Assembly: GCF_016903815.1 (NCBI RefSeq)
Contig: NZ_CP069973.1
Strand: one strand, 5' to 3'
From: Escherichia coli
GTDB lineage: Bacteria; Pseudomonadota; Gammaproteobacteria; Enterobacterales; Enterobacteriaceae
DNA: 64,000 nucleotides
Under the pieces are notes generated by a model, which made no database searches, was not told the DNA's origin, and saw nothing but the letters and a program-made list of their open reading frames with translations. The number at the start of each line of letters is the position of its first letter. Positions within the stretch are counted from its first letter, which is position 1. The translations under genes were made by a program, and so were the position numbers. Positions 17,724 through 59,352 of this stretch are shown here, piece by piece.

Positions 17724-20423
17724 TCAACCAACCTTGCCAGTCAATCCTTCCATAGCCGAATACCCGCAACTTTCGTCATCGGTAACTAAAATCACGTTTG
17801 CCATCTCCGGATCTTTCCGCTGTTCAATGCACCACTGCCTGAACGCTTCCCCTTCCAGTAAAGAAAACTCATCCCGATGTTTTTTCCACCAGCTTCGACG
17901 CACTCTGACAACGCTCATTTCCCATGCGTGAGCACCGTTGGCATAAGGCTTCACCACACTGGCAATACAGGTAGCCAGCCACAGGGAAACAGACTCCTCC
18001 GCCAGACGTGTCGACAGCTTTTCCGGAAGGTAATCGTTGATATTGGCGGCATAGCCAGGCCTGAAGTTCAGCACAAACTTTTTAGCCATTGCGCGATCGC
18101 AGTAATATTTGCCCACTTGCTCCTGCTCGCTGCGGGCAAATCCTTCCGGCATTACCACGTCCTCACCGTAGACTGATTCAATAAGAAGGCGGGCTGCGTG
18201 TGGCATTTGAATAGCGCCTTGCTCACGCAGTACACGCTGCGTCAGCCAGATTCGTCCATGATCGGGATAGACATATGCACTGTTACGCATGGCACTGCCG
18301 AACCATTCGTCACCTGGAGCGTCGTCCCAGACGGGGGCCAGAATCAGCAATTCAGGAGGGGAACGCTCGTCTTTTCCGTCACGCTTTAACTGACCATTAA
18401 TATCGCGGATATGCCGCTGTAATCGCCCCGCTCGCTGGATCAGCAAATCAACAGGGGCCAGGTCGGAAATCATTTCGTCCATATCGCAATCAACGCTCGA
18501 CTCTAAGACCTGAGTACAAATGAGGACTTTTCCGGCACGCTGTGAGCTATCTTCTTTACCGAAGCGTGCCAGCGTTTCCGTTTCAATTCGCTGGCGATCG
18601 CTAAAAGCAAAGCGGCTATGAAACAGAGAAAGGCTGGAAGCAGGAATGACGCCGCGGGCAAGCAACTGACGATAAACCTTAATAGCGTCATCGACAGAAT
18701 TCCGGATCCAGGCGATGCATTTCCCCTGACTTACTGCCGATTCGATACGCGCAATACATTCTTGTTCGCTATGAAGCCAACCCACGCTCACGCTACGCTC
18801 AACGTCTTTGCGCGTCGCTACCCGGTGTGAATGCACATCGGATTTCGTAACGTGCGTCAGCCAGGGGTAATCATCCTTTTCCAGGAACGGAGCTTCTTGC
18901 TGGCCCTCTGTACCACGCGCAAAGGCAGCAACGAGTTTGTCGCACTGCTGTTGAGATAACGTGGCAGAAAGCAAAATGACGCTGTTTCCGCCACGCGCCT
19001 GCCGCTCGATCAGCCCTTCAAGAATGCATGACATGTAAGCGTCACAGGCATGGATCTCATCAGCCAGCAGGATTTTGTTACTCAGTCCCAGAAGCCGCAG
19101 ATTATTATGTTTGAACGGCATCACAGCCATCATCGCCTGATCCAGCGTGCCGACGCCAATTTCAGCCAGTAGCGCCTTCTTGTTACTGTCGGCAAACCAG
19201 GCCGCACATCCCTGACTGAACGTTTGTTCATCCGGTTCTTCTGACCCGACTAAATCACCGGACCAGAGTGATTCATTAAAGCGGTCCATTAATGTTCGGG
19301 CACTGTGTGCCAGCACCAGGCTGGGGCGGGACTCTGGCGAATAGAAAGCAAGCCAGGTTTTGACCAGTCGATCGTACATGGCATTGGCCGTTGCCATTGT
19401 TGGCAGGCCAAAAAACAAACCCTGCGCTTTACCCGCAGCCATCAACCTGTGCGCCAGGATAAGCGCCGCTTCCGTTTTACCTGCGCCAGTCACATCTTCC
19501 AGAATAAATAACTGTGGCCCTGGCTGGCTGATATCCAGATCCAGCACCTTTTGCTGTAACGGTGTCGGATTCTCAATAAAAGGAAACAGCGTATTAATTC
19601 CGGTGAAAGGCGCGACTTTTGCTTTTAGAGGAAAGACGGTTAAGGCGTTTTGAGCCTGAACTAAAGTTTTCTGCCAGTAACCTTTAATATCCATTGGGTG
19701 TGCGACGCGTGGAAAAAATCGCGTTGACGAACCCGTCCAGTCTGCGAGCACGACGGTTGCAGAGATATACCAGGAAAGGTGTTTTATAAGTTCAATGCCC
19801 TCATCATCATCCCAGAATGCGGGGATCTCTATGAGCGGAAACAGTGGTTTGATTTCAAGAAGAAAATCTCGCGCGGCAGCTTTGTCTTCAGGCAGAAAAT
19901 TATCCAGTTCATCAATACGGTCAGGCGGGCGACCATGATGCCCGGTAGTTATGGGCATCCACATCTCCATCACCCGTTTAAGTTTGCGCGGAGAGAGTGA
20001 AGATGAAGGAAGCAATTCTTCGTATTCACTTAAATAATGATGCCACAGCCAGTAGCCCAGCGTTGAATGAGAGATCTTTTCGTAATTCTTTCTTGCGCCT
20101 TCCGGAACCTTGAGTTGTGGGTGCAGGTAAAGTTGCTGAAAAGAGCGGGCAAATTTTCCAGTATCGTGCCAGCACAATAGCCAGGCGAAAAATTGTGCTG
20201 CCTGCTCCGTATCAGCGAAACCTAGTTGACGAAAATAGTCAGTCAGCCCGAAGCAATTGCTTTTAACCATTAAATAGCCCATCGCGGCTACATCCAGCGA
20301 ATGCCAGCAAAGAAGGTGATAGTCGTCGCCCCCGTCTTTCTCGCCGCGTCGGGTTTTTCCCCAGAAATCAAAAAAAGTCACAATATTTTTATCCTTCAGT
20401 AAACTTAAAGGATATTTACGCAT
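17724..20423 (-). CDS. cas3: CRISPR-associated nuclease/helicase Cas3 (HD nuclease + DExH helicase)
   Basis: 899-aa ORF with N-terminal HD-like region (HSLDVAAMGY), Walker A (GAGKT) and DEIH box; ATG start. Confidence 0.95.
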   Translation of the reverse strand: MRKYPLSLLKDKNIVTFFDFWGKTRRGEKDGGDDYHLLCWHSLDVAAMGYLMVKSNCFGLTDYFRQLGFADTEQAAQFFAWLLCWHDTGKFARSFQQLYLHPQLKVPEGARKNYEKISHSTLGYWLWHHYLSEYEELLPSSSLSPRKLKRVMEMWMPITTGHHGRPPDRIDELDNFLPEDKAAARDFLLEIKPLFPLIEIPAFWDDDEGIELIKHLSWYISATVVLADWTGSSTRFFPRVAHPMDIKGYWQKTLVQAQNALTVFPLKAKVAPFTGINTLFPFIENPTPLQQKVLDLDISQPGPQLFILEDVTGAGKTEAALILAHRLMAAGKAQGLFFGLPTMATANAMYDRLVKTWLAFYSPESRPSLVLAHSARTLMDRFNESLWSGDLVGSEEPDEQTFSQGCAAWFADSNKKALLAEIGVGTLDQAMMAVMPFKHNNLRLLGLSNKILLADEIHACDAYMSCILEGLIERQARGGNSVILLSATLSQQQCDKLVAAFARGTEGQQEAPFLEKDDYPWLTHVTKSDVHSHRVATRKDVERSVSVGWLHSEQECIARIESAVSQGKCIAWIRNSVDDAIKVYRQLLARGVIPASSLSLFHSRFAFSDRQRIETETLARFGKEDSSQRAGKVLICTQVLESSVDCDMDEMISDLAPVDLLIQRAGRLQRHIRDINGQLKRDGKDERSPPELLILAPVWDDAPGDEWFGSAMRNSAYVYPDHGRIWLTQRVLREQGAIQMPHAARLLIESVYGEDVVMPEGFARSEQEQVGKYYCDRAMAKKFVLNFRPGYAANINDYLPEKLSTRLAEESVSLWLATCIASVVKPYANGAHAWEMSVVRVRRSWWKKHRDEFSLLEGEAFRQWCIEQRKDPEMANVILVTDDESCGYSAMEGLTGKVG

Positions 20424-20560
20424 ATATTAAAAATTATCTGTGATATATATCGTTCAATAAAATATTTACATTATGAATAATCAAATAATTTTCATCCGTA
20501 ATATATATGAATAATAAACATAGGCATAATATTCACATAAACAATATAAATTAAAAAAGG
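20424..20560 (-). promoter_or_regulatory. AT-rich cas3 upstream/promoter region
   Basis: About 140 bp of very AT-rich sequence directly upstream of the cas3 ATG. Role inferred from composition and position only. Confidence 0.5.
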
Positions 20561-20617
20561 GTGCAGGAGACCAAACCATCACAATTCAATACGCGGGGTT
20601 TTACCCCCGCGTGGTGG

Positions 20618-20770
20618 CTACTTCTTCGATTCGTAAGCGAGAACTGCCTTAAACTCCATACCACGTTCTCTGATACTCAACTCACACAACGAGTCGCCTA
20701 CCATCAGCGTGAATCCCAGTACTGTACAACACAGTACGATGATTGCCACAAGGGCATATTTTGTCAGCAT
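20618..20770 (-). CDS. Hok/Gef-family type I toxin (HokE-like small membrane peptide)
   Basis: 50-codon ORF not in the track (too short): [53 protein letters not shown] with GGAGG 6 nt upstream; single N-terminal TM helix; conserved Hok C-terminus (LCE...AVLAYE). Translated by hand. Confidence 0.8.
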
Positions 20771-21034
20771 GTCTTGCCTCCCTGCAAAGAAGAGACTAAC
20801 ATTCGAATTGCTTAGGTTCGAACGCTGGCCTCAGGTTGATAGAAATATCGCCTGGGGCTTTTGTCCATCTGGAACCTCGCGAATGCTTAACGCCAGACAG
20901 CCTCAAGCACCCAACGCCATTCTATACCTGATAATTCTTCCAGCGGCGTTCACGTTTAAAATCAGGAATGCTGCTCGCAAAATAAAAACGCCCCCATCAT
21001 TTCTGACAGAGGCGTTTAATTTATCCGGCAATAT

Positions 21035-21769
21035 TTACCCTTCGTGTAACCCACATTCTCTTTTTAAGCCAAAGAAACGCGTTTCTTCTTCCGCCATGCC
21101 GGGTTCCCATTTACGGGTTGTATGGGTATCACCGACCGATAAATATCCTTCATCCCATAATGGGTGATATTTCAGGCCATGTTTTTGCAGGTACTGATAA
21201 ATAGTTCGGTTATCCCAGTCGATAATCGGCAGCACTTTAAATACGCCACGCTGAATTGCCAGCACCGGTAAATTGGTGCGGCTGCCGGATTGTTCACGGC
21301 GCAGGCCAGCAAACCAGGTTTGCGCATTCAGTTCTTTCAGCGCCCGGTTCATCGGTTCGACTTTGTTGATGTCATTGTACTTTTCAATGCCTTCAACACC
21401 CTGCTCCCACAGTTTTCCGTAACGTGCTTCCTGCCAGGCGGCGCTTTCGGTAGCGCGGTACACTTTCAGGTTGAGCTTGAGTTTGTCCGTTAACTCGTCA
21501 ATAAAGCGGTAGGTTTCCGGGAACAAGTAACCCGTATCGGTGAGGATCACTGGAATATCCGGGCGAATCTGATTCACCAGATGCAGGCTCACCGCCGCCT
21601 GAATGCCGAAACTGGAAGAAAGTACATATTCACCGGGCAGATTATCCAGCGCCCAGGCAACGCGGCCTTCAGCGTCCAGTTTTTCCAGTTCGGCGTTAGT
21701 TTCTGCCAGCGCCAGAATGCGATCTACCTTCGGCAGTTCGTTCAGGGCGTTTAGATCGAGTTTGGACAT
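21035..21769 (-). CDS. cysH: Phosphoadenosine phosphosulfate (PAPS) reductase
   Basis: Track ORF 21035..21922 trimmed to internal ATG ([15 protein letters not shown]...), 244 aa; recognised as CysH. Confidence 0.96.
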
Positions 21770-58941: not shown

Positions 58942-58986
58942 AAAGCAACCTCAATAAGAAAAACTGCCGCGAAGGATAGCAGGAAT

Positions 58987-59352
58987 AAAAAAAGGGAGCA
59001 CTGTATTCACAGTGCTCCCGGTTCGTTTCGCAGCATTCCAGCTACTTTTGTTGCTCCCTGCTCATCCTTGACAACTTTTCCTCTGGCCTTGCGGCCAATC
59101 GTTCATCCTGAACTATTGCTTCCTGCTCACACCACCCCGATGTGATACTTCATCCTGAAGTGTCCCTGGCCTTCCTGACCCACCGAATCATCCTGACCGG
59201 TTCTCATTCTCCATCCTGGAGGTGTCCTTTAACGCGTCCTGCGTCATCCTCTTCGCTTCATCCAGAAGCCTTTCCCTGAAACACCATCCTGGTGTGTCCT
59301 TCAGAAGTGTCATCATCCTGATGTTCACTTCGTTGTCTGACTCCCTGTCGAC
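58987..59352 (-). ncRNA. csrB: CsrB small RNA (CsrA-sequestering sRNA)
   Basis: About 365-nt non-coding region on the minus strand carrying about 18 GGA motifs, many as CAGGAUG (plus-strand catcctg). 3' terminator hairpin gggagcactg...cagtgctccc plus U-run at ~58987..59019. 5' end approximate. Confidence 0.85.

Follow-up and report, generated by a model that had tools for sequence, protein, structure and literature searches.

Between cysH and cas3, the Escherichia coli sequence studied here holds a short reading frame that resembles the Hok toxins. This raises the question of which locus this is, whether it is complete, and whether it is built to act as a toxin-antitoxin system. We addressed this question within a window of 64,000 nucleotides, i.e. 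the whole stretch of DNA that was analysed, to which all positions below refer. The analysis leaves us in very little doubt that the locus is the already known hokX/sokX type I toxin-antitoxin module of E. coli, present here in complete form.

The intergenic interval 20424..21034 is flanked by cas3 (17724..20423, minus strand) and by cysH (minus strand, stop at 21035). The parts that define the reading frame and its surroundings are the following:

20618..20770, minus strand: hokX toxin ORF of 50 codons plus TAG, established by re-translation, Pfam and paralog alignment
20777..20781, minus strand: hok Shine-Dalgarno sequence GGAGG, 6 nt 5' of the hok ATG and partly paired with an upstream UCUUCUUU tract
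20986..21017, minus strand: intrinsic terminator hairpin of cysH with T-rich tail, found in the scan as a 14-pair stem followed by TTATTTTGCG
20424..20552, no strand: A+T-rich region 5' of cas3, outside the hok module

A preliminary description made from the sequence alone had reported an uninterrupted Hok-family frame with a good Shine-Dalgarno sequence, sited between cysH and cas3 next to an AT-rich region. All of this held. Exact re-translation from the ATG at 20770-20768 to the TAG at 20620-20618 reproduced the peptide quoted there with no internal stop, GGAGG was found 6 nt before the ATG, and the interval between the two flanking genes matched exactly. The A+T content was 84% in the cas3-adjacent stretch 20424-20552 vs 51% in the hok module. 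Upstream, the module is bounded by the cysH terminator. In strains that lack cas genes, where iap and cysH flank the hokX module, the match to the window breaks off at 20552, directly after a T run; the other module boundary was therefore placed at this T run.

The claimed Hok/Gef signature was confirmed by a full-length match to the Pfam family HOK_GEF (PF01848; E 6.3e-10), in which residues 5-46 of the peptide align to positions 1-42 of the 42-position model. The NCBIfam equivalog model for HokA (NF007290) reached 53 bits (E 2.6e-14) against a curated cut-off of 89, and the generic NCBIfam Hok model 39.5 bits (E 3.6e-10) against a cut-off of 73. Since the NCBIfam matches were all below threshold, the family assignment was taken from Pfam. 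By direct reading of the sequence, residues 6-24 are hydrophobic, and the conserved core L28-C29-E30 is present together with Y46, whose UAC codon is followed by G. A recent Hok survey preprint names the L-C-E core and a C-terminal Cys or editable Tyr as conserved positions of the family.

Alignment with the five K-12 paralogs, which were fetched from MG1655, gave the highest identity for HokE (39/50, 78%), followed by HokA (24/50), HokC and HokD (19/51 each) and HokB (16/50). HokE had been suggested as the closest relative and ranked as such among the five. The ORF is nevertheless not HokE itself, given an identity of only 78% and a different chromosomal site: hokE, between ybdK and entD, is a separate gene found in 5407 of the 5426 complete E. 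coli genomes, and its product is called HokE by RefSeq, while the hokX product carries the family name only. HokA as the identity of the protein was likewise rejected (53 bits vs the cut-off of 89; 24 of 50 residues identical). As judged from these comparisons, the hokX product is a HokE paralog at another locus.

The site itself has been named before. Another E. coli with a 100% identical intergenic region carries, at the same position, RefSeq protein WP_000956458.1 ('Hok/Gef family protein'), to which our peptide is identical, and all fetched loci that contain the ORF have it annotated in RefSeq as a Hok/Gef family protein. The name hokX was given in one paper to the cysH-proximal copy, which was first seen in E. 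coli B. According to this paper hokX is inactivated by an insertion element in E. coli B and intact in strain NRG857c. A survey of urinary isolates found hok and sokX next to cysH in 90% of the strains and sokX alone, as in K-12, in the remainder. The window thus shares with hokX/sokX, as named from E. coli B, the cysH-adjacent chromosomal site and an identical protein. In MG1655, sokX (b4701) is annotated between cas3 and cysH and the hok ORF is absent, which agrees with the sok-type RNA that the preliminary description had mentioned for this region of K-12. The leader and Sok region of this K-12 remnant is 98% identical to the window. K-12-type strains match the window no further than the hok ATG (20768), everything 3' of it being lost, whereas the module in the window is complete.

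A complete module of this type would comprise not only the toxin frame but a structured mRNA as well. On the hok-sense strand the following elements were found or predicted:

20755..20912, minus strand: hok mRNA leader, matching Rfam RF01794 ('sok') with 111.7 bits (E 2e-26; model 1-157 of 157; gathering score 59)
20553..20914, minus strand: predicted full-length hokX mRNA, minimum free energy (MFE) -128.9 kcal/mol, z -3.8 vs shuffles
20921..20926, minus strand: candidate -10 box TATAGA of the hok promoter, placed by eye 8 nt before the GGGUGC 5' box
20899..20912, minus strand: tac-like 5' box GGGUGCUUGAGGCU (GGGUGC..GAGGCU), pairing with 20559-20572 in the MFE and centroid structures of the full-length RNA
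20559..20572, minus strand: fbi-like 3' box GGUCUCCUGCACCC (GGUCUC..GCACCC), the predicted partner of the 5' box, followed by the T run 20553-20558
20798..20826, minus strand: SokT-like target hairpin GCGUUCGAAC, loop CUAAGCAAU, UUCGAAUGUU, forming in the predicted fold of the 3'-truncated RNA
20591..20612, minus strand: G+C-rich 3' UTR hairpin ACGCGGGG-GUAAAA-CCCCGCGU of the predicted fold, uninterrupted here and a hot spot for insertion sequences (IS) elsewhere

The putative 5' end of the mRNA was placed by homology to the Rfam leader model, and its putative 3' end by the T run at 20553-20558 and the end of conservation between strains. A consensus promoter and terminator scan of 20380-21080 returned nothing but the cysH terminator and a single promoter-like site within the ORF, fewer sites than were obtained for shuffled sequence. 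No intrinsic terminator was detected where the hok mRNA is proposed to end, and the promoters of hok and Sok, which were placed by eye and by homology, receive no support from the scan. Beside the TATAGA box no convincing -35 element was seen. Nowhere in the module is variation greater than in the hok promoter stretch, where 30% of the sites differ among seven alleles. A study of strain EDL933 gives 'tcaggtata' as the predicted promoter of 'sok_15/sokX'. Weak Rfam matches to ctRNA_p42d and Spot_42 at 20977-21077 lay far under the gathering scores and reflect the cysH terminator hairpin.

The fold of the full-length RNA is closed by pairing of its two ends. Examination of the RNA fold for fbi and tac elements, as had been proposed, returned a 5'-3' stem in both the MFE and the centroid structure, and this predicted closing stem is the tac/fbi arrangement described for the hok mRNA of plasmid R1. 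In one allele (L012) a U-to-C change at 20570 converts a G-U pair of the stem to G-C. A corresponding stem (GCGGGUGCCU with AGGCACCUGC) is predicted for hokE from two IS-free strains, although the 3' UTR of hokE past the hairpin cannot be aligned with that of hokX. In the same full-length fold, 20803-20811, which belongs to the 3' side of the SokT-like hairpin region and lies just upstream of an ATG at 20802, pairs instead with 20581-20589 of the 3' UTR. When the last 40 nt were removed, the predicted fold formed the SokT-like hairpin at 20798-20826.

The antitoxin side of the locus lies on the opposite strand:

20810..20868, plus strand: SokX antitoxin RNA, to which MG1655 sokX (b4701) maps with 2 mismatches (57/59 identical)
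20774..20802, plus strand: candidate Sok promoter TTGCCT-17 nt-TAACAT with a putative +1 G at 20810, 8 of 12 consensus matches

The predicted SokX fold consists of a 5' tail and a hairpin followed by UUUUGU (-22.7 kcal/mol, z -3.6). Antisense RNA elements, whose absence had been named as grounds for doubting the locus, are therefore present, both as the mapped K-12 sokX and as the RF01794 match. The candidate Sok promoter fell under the threshold of the scan and overlaps the hok Shine-Dalgarno sequence; its stretch (20774-20802) is invariant in all seven alleles and in K-12. RNA-seq reads over the SokX region of EDL933 are listed in the study of that strain. RF01794, although named 'sok antitoxin', matches the hok-sense strand over 157 nt, while K-12 SokX is 59 nt long and lies on the opposite strand. 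Taken at face value, the match would give the antitoxin the wrong strand and the wrong length.

We looked for a mok frame; those of mokB and mokC begin with an ATG some 8 nt downstream of a conserved GAGG box. This triplet aligns with TCG in hokX and with TCC in hokE, and no canonical mok, i.e. a frame overlapping hok that opens with ATG, GTG or TTG at this distance from the box, was found in the hokX leader. One small frame reaches hok:

20764..20802, minus strand: candidate mok-like ORF of 12 codons, ATG at 20802, TGA at 20766-20764 over the hok start (AUGCUGA), weak or no Shine-Dalgarno sequence

Its ATG is the only upstream start that reaches hok. It lies 18 nt downstream of the mokB/mokC-type start position, in the 3' arm of the SokT hairpin; the SokX duplex has its 5' end 8 nt away. 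If translated, the 12-codon frame would carry ribosomes through the anti-SD/SD hairpin. All seven hokX alleles and K-12 retain it; allele L009 has TAA in place of the TGA stop codon, owing to a synonymous change in hok. Another short frame (ATG at 20868 with a GAGG Shine-Dalgarno sequence, 18 codons, ending at 20812) falls short of hok and was not adopted. The search for a mok-like frame, a Sok promoter and a Sok terminator thus succeeded in part: the Sok hairpin and U tract are there, the Sok promoter is a by-eye candidate, and the canonical mok is missing. The authors of the recent Hok survey preprint remark that Mok prediction is not trivial.

The hokE/sokE locus of K-12 (ybdK-entD) resembles hokX in this respect as in others. 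Its leader, Shine-Dalgarno sequence and Sok can be aligned with those of hokX, it likewise has no mokB/mokC-type start, it has the same UACG at the Tyr46 codon, and its G+C-rich 3' hairpin serves as an IS186 target, as does that of hokX. An ATG equivalent to 20802 also occurs in hokE (window 20764-20830, minus strand; L004, 797-840). Owing to a 4-nt indel before the hok ATG, this conserved upstream ATG is in frame with hokE, where the product would be 62 aa, but out of frame with hokX. A tentative explanation is that the HokX/HokE branch has swapped the long mok for the mini-ORF (starting at 20802 and stopping on the hok AUG; in hokE an N-extended Hok), with Sok acting via the mini-ORF. Under the same tentative heading, the branch may have no mok and be controlled by RNA structure and cleavage, possibly also by TadA editing of Tyr46. 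The element that bears on such editing is:

20632..20635, minus strand: UAC codon of Tyr46 plus the next G (UACG), a TadA motif for A-to-I editing (Tyr to Cys) placed in the loop of a predicted hairpin

The recent Hok survey preprint reports the motif and editing at the equivalent codon in hokC, hokD and hokE. In hokX, editing of Tyr46, a possibility by motif, would yield a Cys, a partner of Cys29.

Around the elements, homologies, predicted pairings, signs of selection and absence of lesions described here, the working of the locus can be modelled on hok/sok of plasmid R1; the transcript ends, the processing, the action of Sok and the coupling of hok to an upstream ORF are carried over by homology. 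From a weak promoter downstream of the cysH terminator, a hok mRNA some 360 nt long would be made on the minus strand. As long as it is full-length, its 5' and 3' boxes (tac/fbi) would pair, holding the molecule closed so that it cannot be translated. Slow trimming at the 3' end would release the 5' end, such that the leader refolds and the SokT hairpin forms. The plus-strand SokX (about 59 nt) would then pair with the leader, blocking translation and marking the duplex for cleavage. Without Sok, the 50-aa Hok would be made, enter the inner membrane and kill or arrest the cell. The coupling step is uncertain, because there is no canonical mok start at the mokB/mokC position. With the R1 system hokX has in common the small membrane toxin, the cis-antisense Sok over the leader, the tac/fbi fold-back and the SokT hairpin. 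It differs from R1 in being chromosomal and single-copy and in having no long mok frame that overlaps hok, and post-segregational killing is not expected for chromosomal hokX.

The integrity of the locus can be judged from its distribution. The hokX ORF (at least 95% identity) occurs in 4218 of the 5426 complete E. coli genomes (about 78%), in one copy that is always chromosomal. Among 40 evenly spaced genomes, the whole mRNA module was found in 25, a break at 20596 in 5, a K-12-like state with leader and sokX only in 8, and another partial form in 2. The break at 20596 corresponds to IS186/IS421 inserted, in either orientation, in the G+C-rich 3' hairpin 20591-20612 (loci L013, L014 and L016 carry an IS at the hairpin). 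One of the five genomes is Nico21(DE3), a derivative of E. coli B, so that the B lineage differs from the window by an IS186/IS421 in the 3' UTR. In one genome an IS1 was found at 20592-20600 with a 9-bp duplication. These insertions cut the fbi box off the hok mRNA and leave the ORF untouched, as does IS186 at hokE and hokC of K-12. The window has neither the K-12 deletion nor an IS186 or IS1 lesion and belongs to the majority class. The toxin had been highlighted as uninterrupted where chromosomal hok loci are often inactivated; it is indeed intact, but its completeness is ordinary.

The ORF also bears the mark of constraint. Seven alleles, whose intergenic DNA diverges by at most 6%, differ in the ORF by 10 changes, 9 of them synonymous and one non-synonymous (C15F). 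This 9:1 ratio indicates that the HokX peptide is under purifying selection. Toxicity can be gathered from a 2025-26 preprint, in whose supplementary table an identical peptide appears under the name 46_982; its construct (plasmid LRP171) was made with an arabinose promoter, and it shares a 60% cluster with HokE. There, 42 of 45 homologs were toxic on induction and the three non-toxic ones are named, 46_982 not being among them. By exclusion, HokX appears to be toxic when induced. The induced-toxicity assay that the preliminary description had proposed thus appears to have been published already for the identical peptide, with a positive outcome as deduced from that text.

That the sequence is intact is no proof of killing at native expression levels, since post-segregational killing was reported to be absent for the chromosomal loci hokA, hokB and hokC. 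The locus might accordingly be intact and yet physiologically silent, i.e. never translated at native levels, for example for want of a functional mok, and kept for SokX alone or by hitch-hiking. This would fit the missing mok start, the partial sequestration of the hok Shine-Dalgarno sequence in the predicted folds, the reports of other chromosomal hok loci without killing, and the K-12-type genomes (about 20%) that retain sokX without hok. Against it, the excess of synonymous changes argues for selection on the peptide itself, the peptide is toxic on expression as far as the preprint allows one to deduce, the predicted tac/fbi architecture is maintained, and IS insertions repeatedly strike the 3' UTR and not the ORF. 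On balance we regard a silent locus as rather unlikely, and a complete hokX/sokX module remains our reading.

The neighbourhood invites a different thought, namely that the module is functionally tied to the type I-E CRISPR-Cas system, either by driving or insulating cas3 transcription or as an addiction module that stabilises the cas island. Indeed, hokX lies directly 5' of cas3 on the same strand, the scan showed no canonical terminator hairpin at the hok 3' end, and break-points of recombination between cas variants coincide with the module edges. However, the same module is found between iap and cysH in strains without any cas genes, with identity ending at the T run, and in a published survey hok was not enriched near defence systems (12% vs 9.4% expected). 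A functional tie to CRISPR-Cas is thus very improbable.

Several features of the region were recorded alongside. The module edges are break-points of the variable CRISPR-Cas region, at 20768 in K-12-type strains and at 20552 where there is no cas and iap is adjacent (loci L002/L003, L011, L012 and L015). In a rare class hok, sok and cas3 are lost together, and casA adjoins cysH. The window strain has a non-K-12 sequence variant of the type I-E system. Its Cas3 (17724-20423, minus strand) has 899 aa (WP_001521158.1 in the identical locus) vs 888 aa from K-12 coordinates. The whole 611-nt intergenic query was matched only in the non-K-12 cas variant class, in 2239 of 5426 genomes. In no part of the window did a CRISPR repeat family reach its gathering score. 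Elsewhere in the window, a full-length CsrB small RNA was found at 58984-59343 on the minus strand (Rfam RF00018, 382.9 bits, model 1-356 of 356).

It is more improbable still that the ORF is a decaying, K-12-like remnant or pseudogene that stays open by chance. Chromosomal hok loci are often inactivated, and K-12 and the IS-bearing strains mark the site as prone to damage; against this stand the full-length Pfam match, a protein that is identical across strains whose intergenic DNA differs by at most 6%, substitutions skewed to synonymous, and the presence of all regulatory boxes.

That the plus-strand frame 20709..21167 (152 codons) is the real gene and the hok frame incidental can practically be dismissed: although longer than the hok ORF, it crosses the 3' end of cysH in antisense, has no NCBIfam match and is absent from the annotation of all RefSeq loci examined, while the specific family matches belong to the hok frame, so that its earlier dismissal as noise was justified. 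At hokE loci of other strains (L017, 511-780; L018, 511-779) RefSeq lists an antisense 'hypothetical protein' (about 89 aa) opposite the leader and the ORF start of hokE. This frame is frameshifted in one strain and resembles the spurious antisense ORF 20709..21167.

Beyond correct annotation the significance of the hokX/sokX locus is small, as it is already named, annotated in RefSeq and carried by roughly three in four E. coli genomes. The module marks the cysH-proximal edge of the variable CRISPR-Cas region, and its lesions, i.e. the K-12 deletion and the IS186 and IS1 insertions, are convenient lineage markers. The mok arrangement common to hokX and hokE poses a small question on how this branch of the family couples translation to Sok control. 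Unlike in K-12 or E. coli B, the module is complete here, such that this strain may offer a native system for studying a chromosomal hok locus.
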